Below are positions 790-9,726 of a stretch of DNA of 64,000 nucleotides, piece after piece (positions within the stretch are counted from its first letter, which is position 1; each line of letters begins with the position of its first letter). The position numbers and the translations under genes were made by a program. The notes under the pieces were generated by a model. It was given only the letters and a program-made list of their open reading frames with translations, was not told where the DNA came from and did not search any database. The DNA lies in NCBI GenBank assembly GCA_963699755.1, contig CAVOVB010000007.1, positions 96,001 through 160,000 on the forward strand. Direction: 5' to 3'. Source of the stretch: an uncultured delta proteobacterium (GTDB lineage Bacteria; Myxococcota_A; Polyangia; Polyangiales; Houyiibacteriaceae).

Positions 790-1791
790 TTATTCTGCGG
801 CCGCCGCTTCGACGGCCTGAAGCAGGCTCTTCGGAAAAACGCGACCCGTCATGCGATCTCGTACCTTCTTGGCAGCGGCATCCCACTCCGCCTTGTACTT
901 GCTCGTATCGGTTGCCACGATCCCCTTCTTGAGGACGACGTCATAGGCCTTCTGGTCATCGCGGCGAATCGTCTTGTTGAGCAGCACTTCGACGCGCTCG
1001 GAAGAACGTAGGAGCGTTTCCTTGAGATCGGCCGGAAGCGCATCGACCTTGTCCTTGCGCATCACCATGCCGCCGGCGATGATCGCGGAGTTGTGCGCGG
1101 TCATATAATTCACTCGAGTATACCATTGAAGGGCAACTGCCGTGAGCGCCGAAGAGGTGACGACGTCCACCATCTTGGTTTGAAGCCCTGGGTACACTTC
1201 ATTGACGCCGAGCCGAACCCCATTGGCTCCTATCACGTCGTAGAACTCGATGAAGACCAAGTCGTCTTTCCACATCCAAGGTCGCATCGACTTGATATCG
1301 GAGGGCTTCTCGATCGCCTTCTGCGAAAAGAGCCGGGTCTTGCCCGCATCTCCCCAGGCCAGCATCGTGAAGCCTTCATCCTCGAACAGCTTTTCGAATT
1401 CGCCGGCCATTTTTAGCCGAACACGATCGAGCTTTTCGTACGTGTCGAGAAAGTTGGGCAAGACCAATATCACCATCGGCCGGACCAGCATGCTCATGCC
1501 GGTCATCGTAACGACGCCTCCATCGAGCTGACCCACGCGCATCTTTCGAACGAAGTCGCGCTCGTCGCCTTGAGCGCCGCCGGGGTAGAACCGCAGCTTC
1601 AGGCGGCCCTCGGTCTCGCTTTCCAGCGTCTTTTTCCAGGCGTTGAGGACCTTCATCCAGGACGAGCCTGCCGGCGCAAGAGAGGCGATTCGGAACGTGA
1701 CGGCCTCCTCGGCTCGGCTGCTCGGAACGGTGCCAGGGAGCCCCAAGACAACGATGACCAAGAGCAATACAAATGGGAAATATCGATTCAC
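790..1791 (-). CDS. dctP: TRAP transporter solute-binding protein (DctP/TatP-like), 333 aa
   Basis: GTG start at 1791, signal peptide, RIASLAPAGSSW and FYPGGAQGDE motifs; same length as and collinear with the 48983..49984 paralog. Confidence 0.85.
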   Translation of the reverse strand: MNRYFPFVLLLVIVVLGLPGTVPSSRAEEAVTFRIASLAPAGSSWMKVLNAWKKTLESETEGRLKLRFYPGGAQGDERDFVRKMRVGQLDGGVVTMTGMSMLVRPMVILVLPNFLDTYEKLDRVRLKMAGEFEKLFEDEGFTMLAWGDAGKTRLFSQKAIEKPSDIKSMRPWMWKDDLVFIEFYDVIGANGVRLGVNEVYPGLQTKMVDVVTSSALTAVALQWYTRVNYMTAHNSAIIAGGMVMRKDKVDALPADLKETLLRSSERVEVLLNKTIRRDDQKAYDVVLKKGIVATDTSKYKAEWDAAAKKVRDRMTGRVFPKSLLQAVEAAAAE

Positions 1792-1921
1792 GAAACGGTC
1801 TCTTACCGGAGCGGGCCCCCCTCGTCCAGCCCCGCGGAACCCGACCCTGCCGACCCCACCCGTGTTGCGCGGCCCAAACTTTAGCGGAATACTTCCGCTT
1901 CTAAGGGGTTGGGTAGCGGCG

Positions 1922-2302
1922 ATGGATGCCGAGTCACCATGGGGATGGAGCGTTGCGAGGTATCGGCCGGGCCGGTGCACCGCGCAGTTGGCGCTATTCC
2001 TGATCGCCATATCGGGGTTTTTTCCGCGAGTCGAGGCTGATTCGTCCGGGGAGAGGAGCAGCGCCGAAAGGGCCTCGGCCAATCCCCTTCAGGCTCTTGG
2101 CGGGCCCGCCGCGGAGCGCCCTACCGTGTTCGCCGACGAGCTCATCGATCCGCTCGAGGACGATCACCGTGGGGCGGCGTGCCCCTCTGCGCCATCTTTC
2201 CAGAGCTCGGAATCCTCAACGGCTTTCGACTCTAGTGCGGCCTCTCGCGACGGCCGACCAGTAGCGTCCGCGAATCCGGCTCGCGGTCCCCCTTCCGCCT
2301 GA
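1922..2302 (+). CDS. Small upstream ORF (126 aa) with N-terminal hydrophobic segment and C-terminal RGPP motif; putative translation-arrest leader peptide
   Basis: ATG 1922 in frame with listed ORF 1643..2302; hydrophobic LALFLIAISGFF; ends NPARGPPSA-stop 89 nt before sulP. Confidence 0.55.
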   Translation: MDAESPWGWSVARYRPGRCTAQLALFLIAISGFFPRVEADSSGERSSAERASANPLQALGGPAAERPTVFADELIDPLEDDHRGAACPSAPSFQSSESSTAFDSSAASRDGRPVASANPARGPPSA

Positions 2303-2362: not shown

Positions 2363-2391
2363 TTGTGCTCTCAAGGCGAAGGCGGATTGTC

Positions 2392-3993
2392 ATGTCGAAT
2401 GTAGTGTCAAAGGACGGGCGACGAAGCTCGTTCCCAGTTGCCGATCTCAAGGCAGGGTTCTTGGTTTTCCTCATCGCCCTTCCCCTCTGCCTGGGGATCG
2501 CGATGGCCAGTGGTTTCCCTCCCATATCAGGCGTTCTGACCGCGATCATCGGCGGGGTGGTCGTTACGTTCCTGGGTAGCGCACGACTGACCATCAAGGG
2601 TCCGGCGGCCGGGCTCATCGTGATCGCGCTAGGCGCCGTGCAGGAGCTCGGCGGGGGAGATCCCATGCTCGGCTACCGTCGAGCCCTGGCGGTGGGGACT
2701 GTCGCGGCCGCGGTGCAGATCGCGCTTGCCGTCTTTGGAGCCGCCTCGATCGGAGTAGCGATGTCGCCTTCGGTCGTCCACGGGATGCTTGCAGCCATCG
2801 GCGTGATCATCATCTCGAAGCAAGCGCACACTTTGATGGGCGTGGCACCCGAGGCGAAGGAGCCGCTGGAGTTGCTCGCCGAAATCCCGCGCAGCATCGC
2901 GCATGCCAACCCGGAGATATTGATGCTTGGCGGCCTCTCCCTCCTCATACTCTTTGGCTGGCCGCTGATTCGGGCACGATGGGCAAAGGTCATACCCGCT
3001 CCGGTGGTCGTGCTCGCAATGGCGGTGCCACTGAGCCTGTGGCTTGGCCTAGACCACTCCCACGCATATCGATTCCTGTCGCACCAATTCGACGTTGGAC
3101 CCGAATTCCTCGTGCAGCTACCAGGCTCACTCCTCGATGCGATGGTCTTCCCCGATTTCTCGATGGTGTTCACTGCGGCGTCCCTGAAGTACGTAGTGAT
3201 GTTTGCCCTAGTCGGGACGATCGAATCGACCTTGAGCGTTCTCGCGGTTGACTCGATGGATCCCGAGAAGCGCCCGTCGAATCTCAATCGCGATCTACTG
3301 GCGCTTTCTCTCGGTAATCTCGGTTCGTCCCTGCTCGGCGGCCTTCCGATGATCTCCGAGATCGTGCGAAGCAAAGCGAACATCGACGCTGGTGCGAAGT
3401 CGCATTGGGCGAATTTCTTTCACGGTGCCTTCCTCTTGGTCTTCGTCAGCCTCGCTCCAGGCCTGCTGCATGAAATCCCGCTCGCCGCGCTTGCTGCAAT
3501 GCTCGTCTACACGGGTGCGAGACTCGCATCACCTCGGGAGCTCTGGCACGTCAGGCAAATCGGTCTAGATCAGCTCGCGCTCTTCGTCACGACGCTCCTC
3601 GTCACACTCGCTACCGACCTCCTGGTTGGCGTCGCTGCCGGACTAGTTCTGAAGGTCGTCTTGCATCGTGTTCGCGGGGCGACGTTCGCACAAATCTTTC
3701 GTGCCAGGGTCGAGAAGAGGCAGGAAGGGTCCGAGCTACACCTGACCTTGCGTGGTGCTGCCGCGTTCACGAGCCTCATTTCGGTCCGAAGGGCTCTCGC
3801 CGATCTCGATCCTGCGTGTAACAAGGTCGTGATCGACGTGAGCGACGCCGTGATCGTGGATCATACGTTCTTGAGTCGCCTCGACGGTCTGGCGAATGAG
3901 TGGCCCAACGTCGAGCTCGAGGTGATCGGCATCGAGGAGCTCACGCCCCATTCGCCCCATCCCCATGCAACGCGTCGAAGGACCGAAGCATGA
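2392..3993 (+). CDS. sulP: SulP/SLC26 anion (probably bicarbonate) transporter with C-terminal STAS-like region
   Basis: DLKAGFLVFLIALPLCLGIAMASG, IKGPAAGL, GGLPMISEIVRS, IPLAALAAML; many TM helices. Confidence 0.9.
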   Translation: MSNVVSKDGRRSSFPVADLKAGFLVFLIALPLCLGIAMASGFPPISGVLTAIIGGVVVTFLGSARLTIKGPAAGLIVIALGAVQELGGGDPMLGYRRALAVGTVAAAVQIALAVFGAASIGVAMSPSVVHGMLAAIGVIIISKQAHTLMGVAPEAKEPLELLAEIPRSIAHANPEILMLGGLSLLILFGWPLIRARWAKVIPAPVVVLAMAVPLSLWLGLDHSHAYRFLSHQFDVGPEFLVQLPGSLLDAMVFPDFSMVFTAASLKYVVMFALVGTIESTLSVLAVDSMDPEKRPSNLNRDLLALSLGNLGSSLLGGLPMISEIVRSKANIDAGAKSHWANFFHGAFLLVFVSLAPGLLHEIPLAALAAMLVYTGARLASPRELWHVRQIGLDQLALFVTTLLVTLATDLLVGVAAGLVLKVVLHRVRGATFAQIFRARVEKRQEGSELHLTLRGAAAFTSLISVRRALADLDPACNKVVIDVSDAVIVDHTFLSRLDGLANEWPNVELEVIGIEELTPHSPHPHATRRRTEA

Positions 3994-6980
3994 CGTCCGT
4001 CGGCGCCCAGATTCCCAGAATTGCGGGATCATCGAGCTCGGAATCCGATGCGGACGGGACGATTGACGAGATCCTCGAGCATGCGGCGGAGCTGCTTCCT
4101 CAGCAATCCCCACTGCACATGTTCGTTCACCACAACACCTTGCACGCCTTCGAGCACCTGCCCTTCGAGCAAGCCGTCCTCGCAGCCGCCGCGCGCTTTG
4201 GCACCGAGCCCTACCAGTCCGAGCAGGCGTTCGCCCAGTCTCTGAAGTCCGCGAGAATCCGTCCGTCGGACATCGCTGCGGTGATTCCCGAATCGGCCGA
4301 AGACGAGGGCGTGCCTGTGTTCGCCGGGGGTCCGACGCGACACGAGCTGCAGGCTCTTCGTCTACGCAACCTTTTCGAGATCCCGAAGGGCCCTGCGCTC
4401 CATTGGATGCTCGAGGAGACAGGGACGTTATTTCGCTTTCATCCTCGAGTTTCGGAAGCGGCGCGGGCCGCGATCCTTCAATCTGCTGAGCGACTCTCGG
4501 CGGACCGGAGCCCACTCACGCCAGAGGCGCGTGAGGAGCAGGCGCTCGAGCTGCTCTGGAGCGAGCTATTGGCGGTCGCGCCATCGTGCCCACGCACGCG
4601 TATCGGCATGAGGCGCCGCGACCAGATCCTCGATGCTTGCGGTGCCGACACGGATCACCTGGTGCATCCGCTTCTGATTCGTGTCTGCGCAGCGTTCGTC
4701 GATCAGGGGATCGCATACTGGGAGATGCCGGGGCGGGACAAGGGCTTGCTCGAAGTCTTTCGAACCCTGTATGGAATCGGCTCCGGACCTTCCGATCGCT
4801 GGCTGAAAGGGCTGTCCAAGGAGCTGCGACGCCAACACAACGATGGATGGAACGCGGAACGCACGGTGCGCTGGGCGTTGGAGGAGCTGGATGTTCCGCG
4901 CGATCGATGGGCTAGCTACATCGAGGAGACGCTTCTATCGCTTCCAGGTTGGGCGGGCATGATTCGGCAGCTGGAAGTCCGTCCGGACACGGCGCCGGTC
5001 AACCCTCCGCGCGCCCGACTGATCGACTACCTTGCCCTGCAGCTCACTCTCGATGCGCAGGCCGCGCGCTTCGTCGTTCGGACGCAGGCTGGCGGTCCAG
5101 ACGCATTCGCGGAGATGATGTCGCGCCACAGTGACGCCGACCAATCGAGAATGCTGGATCTCGAGCTCGTCTATGAGGCTTTCATCACGGCACAACTGGG
5201 AGGACTCGGGCCAGCGGAGATTACGGGGCCAGGACCAGCGAGGCGCTGGCTGGAAGAGATCCGTTCCTTCGACGCGAACGAACGGCGCAGACTCTTGCAT
5301 CTGGCTTACGAAAGGAGACATCGCATCGGCGTGCTCGACGGGATCGTGGGTCACTGCCAGTTTGAACGAGCGCAAGCAGACGAACCGAGTTTTCAGGCGG
5401 TATTCTGCATCGATGACCGCGAAGAGTCGCTTCGCAGGCACCTCGAAGAGATTCGACCAGACGTGGAGACTTTCGGATACGCAGGCTTCTTTGGCATTGC
5501 GATGGCATATCAGGGGATCGAGGACATTCGGCCGAGGCCGCTATGCCCGGTCGCCGTTCGACCGAGCCACTATGTCACCGAACGCGCCCTCGATGAGGAC
5601 GAAGCCGCCGTGTTCGCTGAGAAGCGCCGCAGACGAGGACAGCTAACCCACTCGATCGGCCTTGGAAGCAAGATGCTGACCCGCGGCGGGATCCTGTCTG
5701 CCTTGTTCGGCTTCCTGGCGGTCATCCCGCTGCTCGGAAGAAGCTTGTTTCCCCGCGCTACGGAGCGTCTCGCGCATTGGTTCTTGCACCGGACGGCGCC
5801 GACTCCTCCGACCCGCCTGTGTCTGGAACGCTCTGCGGCTGAGCGACGGGACGGACTAGAGCCGGGCTACACGCTAGACGAGATGGCCGGCATCGTGTCC
5901 GGCGCGCTGACAACGATGGGGATGGCTGGGAACTTGTCGTCGCTGGTGCTCATCGTCGGGCACGGGTCTTCGAGCCTCAACAACCCGCACGAGGCGGCTC
6001 ACGATTGCGGTGCGACCGGTGGGGGGCGCGGGGGACCCAACGCGCGCGCCTTTTCTCAGATGGCCAATGACCCGCGGGTTCGAGAGAGGCTTCGGACCCT
6101 CGGCTTGATCATCCCCGAGTCGAGCTGGTTCGTAGGCGCGTACCACAACACCTGCGACGACTCGATGACCTATTACGACGAGGACCTGTTGCCGGCGGAG
6201 TCTCTCGAGGCGCTCGAAGACGCAAAGCAAGCCTTTGCAGAGGCCTGCCTCCTGGACGCGCAGGAACGGTGCCGCCGCTTCGAGTCAGCGCCGTTGACTC
6301 TCGATCCCAAGGCAGCCCTCGCACACGCGGAGGCACATGCTTACGATCTGGCGCAGCCTAGGCCCGAGTACGGTCACGCAACGAACGCGGTTTGCATCGT
6401 TGGCCGCAGAAAACGCACACGCGGCCTGTTCTTGGACCGGCGCGCTTTTCTCGTGTCGTACGATCCGGAGAGCGATCCTACAGGAACGGTTCTGGCCCAG
6501 CTTCTTCGATCGGTCGGCCCGGTCGGCGCTGGAATCAACCTGGAATACTATTTCAGCTTCGTCGATCCCACGGGCTACGGCTGCGGTACCAAGCTCCCTC
6601 ACAACATCGTCGGGCTCATCGGGGTGATGGACGGGCACGCATCGGACTTGAGGACCGGCCTGCCCTGGCAGATGGTGGAGATTCACGAGCCCGTTCGCCT
6701 CTTGACCATCGTCGAGGCAGAAACCGCGACTTTGGCGCGCATCTTGGAGCAAGAACCGGCGCTTGCGAGCTTGGTGAACAATGAGTGGATCCAGTTGGTG
6801 GCCTGGGATCCCTCCGGTCATGCGTTCGCCGTCTATCAGAACGGACGATTTCAACCGTACATCCCAGAAAACCCGGCCATCGCCGTGGTCGACCGCTCGC
6901 TCGACTACTACTTCGGCAGACGGGGGCATCTTAGCCCTGCGCACATCAGGGCCGGATTGCCCGGATTCGGTGGAGCGTGA
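3990..6980 (+). CDS. dabA: DUF2309 DabA/MpsB-type soluble subunit of inorganic carbon pump (beta-CA-like)
   Basis: FVHHNTLHAFE, FCIDDREESLRRHLE, GHGSSSLNNPH..DCG, RPEYGHATNA, DLRTGLPWQMV; ATGA overlap with sulP. Confidence 0.9.
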   Translation: MTSVGAQIPRIAGSSSSESDADGTIDEILEHAAELLPQQSPLHMFVHHNTLHAFEHLPFEQAVLAAAARFGTEPYQSEQAFAQSLKSARIRPSDIAAVIPESAEDEGVPVFAGGPTRHELQALRLRNLFEIPKGPALHWMLEETGTLFRFHPRVSEAARAAILQSAERLSADRSPLTPEAREEQALELLWSELLAVAPSCPRTRIGMRRRDQILDACGADTDHLVHPLLIRVCAAFVDQGIAYWEMPGRDKGLLEVFRTLYGIGSGPSDRWLKGLSKELRRQHNDGWNAERTVRWALEELDVPRDRWASYIEETLLSLPGWAGMIRQLEVRPDTAPVNPPRARLIDYLALQLTLDAQAARFVVRTQAGGPDAFAEMMSRHSDADQSRMLDLELVYEAFITAQLGGLGPAEITGPGPARRWLEEIRSFDANERRRLLHLAYERRHRIGVLDGIVGHCQFERAQADEPSFQAVFCIDDREESLRRHLEEIRPDVETFGYAGFFGIAMAYQGIEDIRPRPLCPVAVRPSHYVTERALDEDEAAVFAEKRRRRGQLTHSIGLGSKMLTRGGILSALFGFLAVIPLLGRSLFPRATERLAHWFLHRTAPTPPTRLCLERSAAERRDGLEPGYTLDEMAGIVSGALTTMGMAGNLSSLVLIVGHGSSSLNNPHEAAHDCGATGGGRGGPNARAFSQMANDPRVRERLRTLGLIIPESSWFVGAYHNTCDDSMTYYDEDLLPAESLEALEDAKQAFAEACLLDAQERCRRFESAPLTLDPKAALAHAEAHAYDLAQPRPEYGHATNAVCIVGRRKRTRGLFLDRRAFLVSYDPESDPTGTVLAQLLRSVGPVGAGINLEYYFSFVDPTGYGCGTKLPHNIVGLIGVMDGHASDLRTGLPWQMVEIHEPVRLLTIVEAETATLARILEQEPALASLVNNEWIQLVAWDPSGHAFAVYQNGRFQPYIPENPAIAVVDRSLDYYFGRRGHLSPAHIRAGLPGFGGA

Positions 6981-8344
6981 TGGAAACCATCATCCATGGC
7001 TTGGTGATCGGCATCGTGGGATTCCCCGTGCTGGCCGTGTTCGTCCTCGGTCTGCGTGCCTGGCTCTATCGACCCTGGAGCGAGCGCGCGACCGTCGCGA
7101 TCGTAAGCTCGGCGTTCAGCGCTTCACTGACGGCATCCGCGATCACCACCGGCTGGCTTCTCGTGCGAGACGTCTCCGAAGCCCGCGTTCCCTTGGGCAG
7201 CTGGTTCTCCGCCGAGCACTATTCGTTCGATTGGTACCTCATAGCGGATCATCTGTCGATTCCCTTTGCGATGTTCTCGGCCGCGCTACTAGGTCTTGTC
7301 GCCGCGTTCTCGAGAAGGTACTTGCACCGCGAGCCGGGCTTCTCACGATTCTACCTCCTACTGACCATCTTCGGTGCCGCAGTAGCGTTCGTCGTGCTGG
7401 CAGGAAGCCTGGATTTGGCCTTCATCGGATGGGAGCTAGTTGGGCTGACGTCCGCTCTGCTGATCGCGTTCTTTCACGAGAGGCGAGCGCCAGTAGAGCA
7501 TGGCCTCCGTGCCTTCGTGACCTATCGACTCTGTGACGTCGGTTTGCTCGCCGCCGGGGTCGCACTTCACTTCATGGTCGGCACGTCGGATGTCGTGCCT
7601 TCCTCGACCGGTCCTTGGGCGGGCTTCGTCGTTCCGAACACCGTGCTCGAGGCGACCGTCGTCGGCTTGCTCCTTCTCTGGGCATCCATGGGCAAAGCGG
7701 CCCAAGCGCCGCTGTCCGGATGGCTGCCGCGCGCGATGGAAGGTCCCACCCCTTCGAGCGCCGTGTTCTACGGGGCGCTTTCCATCCATCTAGGACCCTA
7801 CCTTCTGCTTCGTGCCGCGTCGATCCTCGAGTTCTCGGGAATCGCAGCCGGTGCGGTGATCGCGGTGGGAGGGTCTACCGCCCTGCACGCGACTTTCGTA
7901 GGCCGTACGCAAACCGACATCAAGAGCGCCCTCGCGTACGCCTCGATGACCCAAGTGGGGCTGATCTATGTCGAGATCGGGCTCGGTTTCTACCACCTTG
8001 CGGTCGCCCACATCGTCGGACACGCCGCCATTCGAACGCTTCAAATCCTGAGGTCCCCAAGCTTGCTCCACGACTACCATCATCTCGAGCAAGCGATGGG
8101 AACGCAGCTTCCGCGAACCGGCGGACATCTCGAACGCCTCGTGCCTGGCGCTCTTCAGCCCTGGCTCTATCGCGTCGCCCTCGAGCGCGGTGGCTTCGAC
8201 GCCTTCCTCAGGGACCAGGTCGTTGCGCGGGCGCTGGGCGCCGTCTCGTGGTTGGACCGGGTGGACCGGGCCTGGGTAGACTATCTGACGAAACCAACGC
8301 GACCGAAGGAGCCGCGCCAGCAGCCGGACGAGGTCCGACCATGA
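6977..8344 (+). CDS. dabB: DabB/MpsA-type NuoL(ND5)-like proton-conducting membrane subunit
   Basis: GWELVGLTS, GKAAQAPLSGWLPRAMEGPTPSSA, QTDIKSALAYAS; overlaps the dabA stop. Confidence 0.85.
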   Translation: MMETIIHGLVIGIVGFPVLAVFVLGLRAWLYRPWSERATVAIVSSAFSASLTASAITTGWLLVRDVSEARVPLGSWFSAEHYSFDWYLIADHLSIPFAMFSAALLGLVAAFSRRYLHREPGFSRFYLLLTIFGAAVAFVVLAGSLDLAFIGWELVGLTSALLIAFFHERRAPVEHGLRAFVTYRLCDVGLLAAGVALHFMVGTSDVVPSSTGPWAGFVVPNTVLEATVVGLLLLWASMGKAAQAPLSGWLPRAMEGPTPSSAVFYGALSIHLGPYLLLRAASILEFSGIAAGAVIAVGGSTALHATFVGRTQTDIKSALAYASMTQVGLIYVEIGLGFYHLAVAHIVGHAAIRTLQILRSPSLLHDYHHLEQAMGTQLPRTGGHLERLVPGALQPWLYRVALERGGFDAFLRDQVVARALGAVSWLDRVDRAWVDYLTKPTRPKEPRQQPDEVRP

Positions 8345-9726
8345 CGATCGTGTTTACGGCTCTGCAGGTTCTCCTACTGGTTCCGATGGCCTGGTTCGTC
8401 GCGCGTTCGAGCACGCCGCGGACGGCTCGCCACCGAGCCAGCTACGCCATGGGTCTGGCGGGCATTCTTGCGCTGACCCAAATTGGATGGCGCGCTCTGG
8501 GCATCTCGATGCCAGCGCCGAACGCAGACTGGATTTCCATGGAAGACCCGCATTCCTGGGCTCCCGCGTTCTCTCTGATCACCTGCCTGATCGGTTACAC
8601 CGCGGTCGCCCTCAGCCCGATCAGCGGAACGCGTCCCAAGACGTTTGCGAGGATCTTGCTTCTCATTGCGGTCGCGTTGGTCTTCTTGGTGATTCGAAAC
8701 CCGATCGGGCTTGCCATCCTCTGGGGCGCTTCGGCGCTGCTCGTATGGCTCGAGCTGCGAGAGATGCGTGCGACTCAGACGACCGCAAGGCTCTTCGCCA
8801 TCTACCACATCCCGAGCGTGGTGGCGCTGGGCATTGGCGCCGTACTTCTCAGTCGAGGCCAGTCCGCTGTGGGGCTGGTGTTCCTGCTCATAGGCATCGG
8901 AATCCGCGAAGCGGTGATCCCGCTCCAGAGCTGGTTCCCGCCCTTCGTGCAATACGCACCCATGGGCCTGGTGGTTGCGTTCTTTGCTCCCCAGCTCGGT
9001 GTCTATGCGCACCTGGAGTTGCTCAAAGGCGAGCTCCCGCAGCAGCTAGCTCATGGTGTGGCAGCTCTTGGCGCGGTCACCGCAGTAGTCGCCGCGGGGC
9101 TGGGCATTGCGCAAACGGACGCGAGGCGTGCCCTCGGATTCCTGATCATCAGCCAGACGGGCCTCGTGGCCTTCGGCCTCGATGCGAGGTCTCCAGTTGC
9201 CCAGATCGGTGCATTGCTGACCTGGCAAGTGATCGGCCTGGCGACCGCTGGGTTCGCCATGACCCTGGCGTCACTCGAAGCCCGGCGGGGGAGCCTTTCG
9301 ATGCGGGTGCCAGCGGGCAGCTTCACCCGGACACCTCGCATGGCTGTTTCTTTTCTCTTCATGGGTTTCGCGAGCGTCGGTCTCCCGCTCACGCTCGGGT
9401 TCGTAGCCGAAGATCTGCTGGTACAGGGATCGGTCGACGAGTTCCCCTTGCTTGCCTTCGCGTTGATCGTGGCCACTGCGCTCAACGGCGTTTCGGTCAT
9501 GCGGGCCTTCTTCACGCTGTTCAGCGGTTCCGCGAAGCACATCGGAGAGCGCGATCTGACCAGGCGAGAAGCAGCGGTACTGACGGTATTGATGGCCACG
9601 CTGCTGATCACGGGGCTCTTTCCCGGTGGGACCGTACGCCGCCTCGAGGGAATCACCGAACCCCGACAAGCGCCCGCTACCCTCGTGGAGACTTCCGGCG
9701 TCTTGCGCGCCTTGCAACGGCCTTGA
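8341..9726 (+). CDS. Second proton-conducting transporter subunit (NuoM/MrpD-like), 461 aa
   Basis: ATG 8341 with ATGA overlap; multi-TM; IPLQSWFP and ASVGLPLTLGFVAEDLL. Confidence 0.8.
   Translation: MTIVFTALQVLLLVPMAWFVARSSTPRTARHRASYAMGLAGILALTQIGWRALGISMPAPNADWISMEDPHSWAPAFSLITCLIGYTAVALSPISGTRPKTFARILLLIAVALVFLVIRNPIGLAILWGASALLVWLELREMRATQTTARLFAIYHIPSVVALGIGAVLLSRGQSAVGLVFLLIGIGIREAVIPLQSWFPPFVQYAPMGLVVAFFAPQLGVYAHLELLKGELPQQLAHGVAALGAVTAVVAAGLGIAQTDARRALGFLIISQTGLVAFGLDARSPVAQIGALLTWQVIGLATAGFAMTLASLEARRGSLSMRVPAGSFTRTPRMAVSFLFMGFASVGLPLTLGFVAEDLLVQGSVDEFPLLAFALIVATALNGVSVMRAFFTLFSGSAKHIGERDLTRREAAVLTVLMATLLITGLFPGGTVRRLEGITEPRQAPATLVETSGVLRALQRP

Follow-up and report, generated by a model that had tools for sequence, protein, structure and literature searches.

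The stretch analysed here (the window, 64,000 nucleotides in full) carries a four-gene operon preceded by a short leader open reading frame (ORF), all on the forward strand (Table 1). The operon comprises sulP, dabA, a NuoL-like dabB and a gene for a NuoM-like subunit, linked by overlapping stop and start codons; the NuoM-like gene was missing from the operon list of the original prediction and was also found in distant copies of the operon. SulP scored under the NCBIfam cut-offs for BicA and DauA. The presence of both DabA and a NuoL-like DabB corresponds to the make-up of a DAB inorganic-carbon pump operon, which, judging from its gene content, likely serves bicarbonate/CO2 uptake. A RuBisCO large subunit was looked for in the organism's own genome and not found. 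A second DAB operon type (dabB-dabA) was located in the same genome at G000:C1:382,045-387,182. It adjoins a divergent gene that looks LysR-like by eye, and a RAPP leader was not found at it.

Table 1. Features of the leader-operon locus in the window, and leader copies at other loci.
Feature	Position	Strand	Basis or remark
Putative sigma70-like promoter motif, TTGCGC-17 nt-AATACT	1865..1893	+	aligned genus copies
Leader ORF, RGPP-type candidate arrest peptide	1922..2302	+	126 aa; translation and homologue comparison
Likely Sec signal peptide, residues 1-39	1922..2038	+	sequence pattern by eye
Acidic cluster D72-D81 (DELIDPLEDD)	2135..2164	+	42-51 residues before P-site Pro
RGPP arrest motif	2282..2293	+	Pro123 (2288-2290) and Pro124 (2291-2293) predicted to occupy the P and A sites, respectively, at the stall
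Predicted anti-Shine-Dalgarno strand CCGCCT (Ser-Ala-stop codons)	2295..2300	+	RNAalifold consensus
Hairpin P1	2301..2324	+	pairing 100% over 16 sequences; two-sided changes in 3 pairs
Hairpin P2	2337..2362	+	pairing 93.7%; two-sided changes in 4 pairs
sulP Shine-Dalgarno GAAGGCGGA	2378..2386	+	sequence
sulP, SulP/SLC26 anion transporter	2392..3993	+	PF00916, E 3e-52
dabA	3990..6980	+	PF10070, E 3e-244; CIDDR, GHG and CGA motifs visible in translation
dabB, NuoL-like	6977..8344	+	PF00361 and PF00662; best NCBIfam NuoL
NuoM-like fourth subunit	8341..9726	+	PF00361; best NCBIfam NuoM
RND-linked leader copies	L194 (G084:C10 ~307.3k), L195 (G193:C9 ~811.9k), L213 (G012:C301 ~8.0k)		
Example of a TonB-receptor RAPP leader	L211:7033-7452 = G000:C1 ~329.0k	-	His-rich

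The leader ends in ARGPPSA (codons CGC GGT CCC CCT TCC GCC TGA, with the Arg codon at 2282), and 89 nt separate the end of its stop codon from the sulP ATG at 2392. Upstream lies a divergent gene for a DctP (TRAP solute-binding) protein (790-1791, reverse strand), a neighbour that was not constant among leader loci; further DctP-like copies were seen in the window at about 49.1-50.0 kb and on other contigs. No family was matched in Pfam and NCBIfam scans of the leader protein, and an Rfam scan of 1700-2500 yielded only four weak matches, all far from the gathering score; a known riboswitch at the leader was therefore rejected.

Of the reading frames in the organism's genome, 237 have R[AG]PP at most six residues from the stop, and just three of these have a hydrophobic segment 70-140 residues upstream, two of the three being the leader and its syntenic copy. 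The entire window (1-64000) is syntenic with G000:C1:1,841,535-1,899,654 at about 77-87% identity. A paralogous origin of this second copy was rejected, as it belongs to a block of 80% identity whose synteny extends over the whole window and the assembly is 9%-contaminated; it is likely a congeneric sequence from a second organism in the assembly. The leader frame was free of stops over 115 codons in all 16 genus copies examined, and stops occurred in the remaining two forward frames in 30 of 32 cases. Start codons aligned across the genus copies, mismatches by codon position were 0.44/0.38/0.55 with the third position highest, and the codons for Ala, Arg, Gly and the first Pro varied synonymously. 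For 12 of the 16 copies, mean pN was 0.41 and mean pS 0.58, with pN below pS in 66/66 pairs, which are non-independent.

Among 41 related genomes, an equivalent ORF ending AR[GAS]PP[SF][AS] before the stop was present at all in-genus loci with a close SulP (n = 10/10), in the syntenic C1 copy and at 1/4 loci of other families; these ORFs lie 87-95 nt from sulP. A homologue search with the single sequence recovered two close relatives only, and a profile search recovered 45 representatives sharing the leader architecture, genomic context not being part of that comparison. Matches of the phylum profile search above about 1e-5 lacked the motif end and were counted as noise; at two of them, L197 and L198, no leader was seen. 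The leader is thus confirmed as a genuine conserved coding gene, beyond chance. In one metatranscriptome run (0.12 word share), contigs spanned the sulP of mixed relatives, with the leader hardly covered.

The N-terminus has the appearance of a signal peptide when inspected by eye, with a basic RYRPGR stretch, a hydrophobic segment at residues 24-35 (LALFLIAISGFF) and V-E-A before D40. In an AF2 model (pTM 0.25), residues 16-31 formed the sole confident helix and the rest was coil. Nearly all leaders have a hydrophobic window 86-128 residues N-terminal of the Arg, with a mean hydropathy of 1.9-3.3 in 37 of 38. Mean column identity across 36 aligned leaders was 21%, and only R, P, P and the start were fixed, the invariance of R, P and P being built in by the choice of these leaders through an R[GAS]PP-type motif. 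The motif was found in all homologues, usually 2-4 residues from the stop and rarely more. Three features hold their position across leaders: the hydrophobic segment, the motif near the stop and an Asp/Glu cluster.

These properties agree with those of RAPP/RGPP upstream ORFs, which are shorter than 300 aa, carry an N-terminal localisation signal, precede a gene on the same strand and have their motif a few residues from the stop (PMC12992588, PMC10987492). RGPP gave the most robust arrest in the ApcA and SecM contexts, and 7/7 Streptomyces RAPP/RGPP leaders tested arrested (PMC12992588). By analogy, the leader fits the RAPP/RGPP kind of arrest peptide. The original prediction placed the stall at the Pro codons 2288-2293, which would agree with the P- and A-site positions toeprinted for CruR, and its proposal that sulP-dabA-dabB is headed by a leader of the RGPP/RAPP type, conserved and hydrophobic near the N-terminus, was supported. 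Alternatively, the product could be an ordinary small secreted protein, or the RNA element alone could matter, with RGPP not stalling. RAPP-like sequences of ordinary E. coli and B. subtilis proteins are indeed mostly inefficient at arrest (PMC10987492), but R-x-P-P is fixed near the stop across families despite synonymous variation, and distances are fixed in leaders with a fast-changing, unstructured body, so that we regard the absence of a stall as very improbable.

Upstream of the leader, TTGC and GAATACT align 16 or 17 nt apart in 15/16 genus copies although the upstream gene varies; the promoter-like motif scored under threshold in a consensus scan. In the RNAalifold consensus of the 16 genus copies, CCGCCU at the end of the leader pairs with AGGCGG of the sulP Shine-Dalgarno (SD) sequence, enclosing hairpins P1, P2 and P3. 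P3 was 89.9% paired with zero two-sided changes; for the anti-SD helix, the evidence for which covers genus copies only, 93.8% of cells were paired, also with no two-sided change. The window's own copy of this region folded with a z of -4.4, and the RGPP codons were placed on the SD.

Opening the SD in the window was calculated to cost 14.9 kcal/mol in the free RNA, 5.9 with the ribosome footprint masked and 8.1 once the masked segment was shuffled. When the footprint of a ribosome stalled at Pro-Pro was masked, the initiation region became cheaper to open in 15/16 copies, and the real masked segment was costlier than the shuffle mean in 11/16, with no effect in L048; summed over the 16 copies, the real segment exceeded all 40 shuffles. 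A point against unmasking is that the masked RNA of the window can refold and hide the SD and AUG again by pairing them to 2327-2343. A stall is predicted to open the sulP SD, and the opening energies favour the helix in most copies. Such an output has been shown for SecM and a SecDF leader, in which the stall opens the SD (PMC10987492), and resembles that of CutF, whose stall melts an SD-hiding stem (bioRxiv 2025.02.05.636593).

The output could instead be transcriptional, with termination in the spacer that either depends on Rho or is coupled to pausing, as in CruR, whose action is mediated by Rho (bioRxiv 2022.03.18.484875). Beyond the genus, the spacer between leader and sulP measures 50-340 nt and is often C-rich, and the genus fold is not shared by eye. 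Against this, the genus spacer is held at 87-102 nt with conserved hairpins, no U-tract terminator was found in it, and the Ser-Ala codons are nearly fixed in DNA across the genus and complementary to the SD. Termination is accordingly a quite unlikely alternative to unmasking of the SD.

The distribution of the leader was surveyed in SulP relatives from GTDB contigs (16 loci), 401 phylum genomes and metagenomes (best 80 of 570); duplicates and loci with <450 nt upstream were removed, and a leader was counted within 500 nt. The search for R[AG]PP ORFs before DUF2309/SulP operons that the original prediction had proposed proved productive, as a leader (hydrophobic start, R[GAS]PP near the stop) was present at 30/65 loci with dabA downstream. 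It was also found at 5/21 loci with unknown downstream genes, at 3/36 clade loci with no dabA in the available DNA and at none of 17 distant SulPs; one further leader, L076, lies at -568. In a FastTree phylogeny of 117 SulPs, a single clade (support 98) spanning several families carried the leader in 30/31 rows, indicating that leaders were mostly inherited together and are not independent samples; six leader rows fell outside it, and seven changes were needed on the tree. Some clade SulPs (L043, L116 and L159) have a PII-like domain at the C terminus, and at L011 a beta-carbonic anhydrase gene (118-795) lies directly upstream of the leader. Within the genus, the leader was matched in 16/55 genomes. 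DabA is encoded in every one of these 16, in 14 of them on the contig of the leader, and also in 11 genomes with no leader match; the nine checked of those 11 lacked a close SulP.

Upstream neighbours were compared by a Pfam scan covering 88 of 124 candidate frames. A histidine kinase, response regulator or ECF sigma factor adjoins upstream at 20/33 leaderless dabA-linked loci (Pfam-confirmed), and several more look regulator-flanked by eye, whereas the same regulator types were found at 1/28 leader-bearing loci, many of which had no match or little DNA upstream. Given this difference, the leader seems to take the place of a dedicated sensor system. The regulators that usually adjoin leaderless sulP-dabA loci are two-component systems of the sigma54, NarL or OmpR type or ECF sigma factors (L012, L014, L035, L039, L040, L043, L059-L063, L067, L070, L072, L091, L094, L097, L101, L118, L123 and L150), and are uncharacterised candidate inorganic-carbon or pH regulators.

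In three genus genomes, copies of the leader, the spacer and a sulP-like start stub head RND efflux operons, in the order permease-adaptor-outer-membrane factor, with the acidic cluster kept; at L196 (G395), the leader lies before a sulP stub, beyond which come another SulP gene and an RND system. Since these paralogous leaders with the cluster head RND pumps, an energy signal suits the leader better than a CO2 signal.

Counted from the Arg of the motif in 39 leaders, the D/E share was 52% at -41 to -45, 38% at -46 to -50 and 3-11% at -1 to -35. In the 22 leaders from outside the genus, 129/330 positions at -38 to -52 were D/E, and none of 2000 circular shifts reached as high a best window, a test that overstates the significance of the cluster because the leaders are kin. 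When distances were expressed as L+n, with the second Pro as the end point, the best acidic window fell at 45-56 in 33/39 leaders and elsewhere in six, and 37/39 had a net charge of -3 or more at 40-56, two being without it; outside the genus the 57-90 zone was acidic too (median -4). D76-D81 of the window leader lie at L+n 49.

Among the sensing options of the original prediction, pH or proton-motive force (PMF) gained specific support from this fixed position of the acidic cluster, and zinc sensing was not supported: no Cys or His was conserved in the leaders (1% and 0%, respectively, at -41 to -50), and a zinc-motif reading was rejected on that ground. More broadly, the leader could sense a periplasmic ligand in the manner of CruR or CutF, its carboxylates binding Zn, Ca, Mg, Na or protons and thereby altering the pull on the chain. 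The acidic cluster occupies the place of the CXXC of CruR, an exported leader with a proline-rich C-terminal stall, whose sensor element lies 45 residues before RAPP (bioRxiv 2022.03.18.484875). Leaders of TonB-dependent receptors in the same genus, a His-rich RAPP type found at 6/30 loci, carry a His pair at the equivalent place, within a conserved HGxGSxAH at -52 to -45, and have D/E at 7/90 positions of the -38 to -52 window, with acids at -56 to -65 instead. DabA is a zinc enzyme, and sensor kinases serve leaderless operons. Besides the missing Cys and His, ligand binding is opposed by the cluster itself, which keeps net charge and position but no spaced motif in the 36 aligned leaders, and by the unstructured AF2 model at this place; we consider it unlikely. 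CruR and CutF further differ in that the leader has an Asp/Glu cluster and no CXXC, and in that its target is inorganic-carbon uptake, not copper. Although the feature-level likeness between the leader and a cluster named DUF2946 was 0.91, the DUF2946 profile matched none of 36 leader members (E up to 0.5), and membership was rejected, there being no CXXC about 45 residues before RAPP either.

The cluster is not specific to the sulP-dab operon, as D/E runs are shared by a few SecD leaders (about 2/28, by eye) and by several gammaproteobacterial K+/H+ antiporter leaders, in which they lie about 37-48 residues before RAPP by eye; in ubiquinol-oxidase leaders a second hydrophobic segment is seen by eye in the same region (PMC12992588). 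In the phylum, secD had a leader within 1.5 kb at 0/30 loci and so provided no composition control. The scarcity of the cluster in SecD leaders speaks against a generic export monitor like SecM, ApdP or VemP, in which any Sec pull would release the stall, the acids would only aid it, and synthesis of the four membrane-linked proteins would follow translocon capacity or take place at the membrane. In favour of such a monitor, SecDF leaders likewise have an unstructured linker after a start that resembles a signal peptide, many membrane and envelope genes are headed by RAPP leaders, and leader copies are also used by RND pumps. However, inducing the operon on poor export would increase the load, and the near-exclusive alternation with two-component or ECF systems suggests a specific signal, which leaves a generic monitor with a small share of the probability. 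The predicted logic, in which a stall opens the SD and pull on the exported chain releases it, is like that of SecM, VemP and uDF_RQH_Enterobacterales, but these show no sequence match with the leader. Downstream there is no Sec or YidC component, which characterises SecM, ApdA, ApdP, VemP and MifM, but sulP-dabA-dabB-nuoM-like genes or RND pumps instead. The tie of VemP to ion-motive force is indirect, via SecDF.

Our preferred reading, to which we give a little short of an even chance, is that the leader stalls at RGPP and uncovers the sulP SD, that the membrane potential pulls on the acids and releases the stall, and that the operon is on at low potential. The leader product would likely enter the Sec channel by its signal peptide, co-translational docking being assumed. 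Arrest would occur, as in the RAPP/RGPP family, with Pro123 and Pro124 in the P and A sites, and the stalled ribosome is predicted to cover 2282 to about 2303 and to break the CCGCCU:AGGCGG stem; the freed SD would then start translation, which the overlapping stop and start codons would carry through the four genes. At the stall, the distance between D72-D81 and the arrest end would be 43-53 residues, which would put the cluster within the electric field of the membrane. With a high potential (inside negative), the chain would be pulled and the stall ended, turning the operon off, and a low potential, with acid outside or in a de-energised cell, would prolong the stall and turn the operon on. 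Acidification of the outside lowers the membrane potential, and under such conditions CO2, the substrate of DAB, prevails.

Five Asp at L+n of about 50 produced the dominant potential-dependent pulling peak in SecYEG, in experiment and simulation, with engineered E. coli constructs that used the SecM stall and a membrane-anchored start (bioRxiv 10.1101/310698, which also gives the charge-driven pulling of the primary report, Ismail 2015). MifM also uses acidic residues (PMC10987492), but its acidic run is at the stall site, whereas that of the leader is 40-50 residues upstream, outside the ribosome tunnel. DAB2 function needs the membrane potential, and, according to a title cited in the same paper, MpsA, the homologue in S. 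aureus, helps to generate that potential (PMC13144422). A point against the voltage model is that a cell has no obvious benefit from inducing a pump that consumes PMF when the potential is low.

RAPP/RGPP leaders precede genes of diverse function (Fujiwara et al., EMBO J 2025; PMC12992588), and the pairing with SulP, which the original prediction took to be undescribed, has a precedent there: at least 15 RAPP upstream ORFs before SulP are among the 8,420 rows listed in the source data of Figure 4, although SulP is outside the top 30 RAPP groups. In several leaders of these data (for example QQR89448.1, MCB9846763.1, WP_152629771.1 and WP_143206517.1), acidic residues cluster by eye some 43-49 positions ahead of RAPP. 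The main text of that paper mentions neither "transporter" nor "carbon"; DabA, DUF2309 and inorganic carbon were not found in the supplementary data covered, and the sections covered include no SulP leader among those tested and no acidic-cluster or voltage model. Searches of open-access literature listed no RAPP leader-DAB pairing and no acidic voltage-sensing RAPP leader. The present analysis adds to the catalogue the DAB link, the predicted anti-SD stem, the apparent exchange with two-component systems, an acidic cluster at a kept position and the leader copies ahead of RND pumps.

Thousands of RAPP/RGPP leaders have been catalogued and the releasing force is known for few of them (Sec pull, copper), its source being called an open question by Fujiwara et al. 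(PMC12992588). The present family offers a testable answer for one class, namely that the potential pulls electrophoretically on a patch of acidic residues, an effect so far seen only in engineered constructs. The family would also place DAB-type carbon uptake under translational control in bacteria without RuBisCO. It is possible, though we propose it only tentatively and with less confidence than the stall-and-release mechanism, that these leaders are a natural genetically encoded voltmeter, reading the membrane potential through SecYEG and setting the expression of a CO2/bicarbonate pump and, in copies, of RND pumps. More generally, the region at about -45 in RAPP leaders would then be a modular sensor slot, filled by CXXC for copper, by a His pair for a metal-uptake receptor and by acids for voltage or pH, and able to replace a two-component system.
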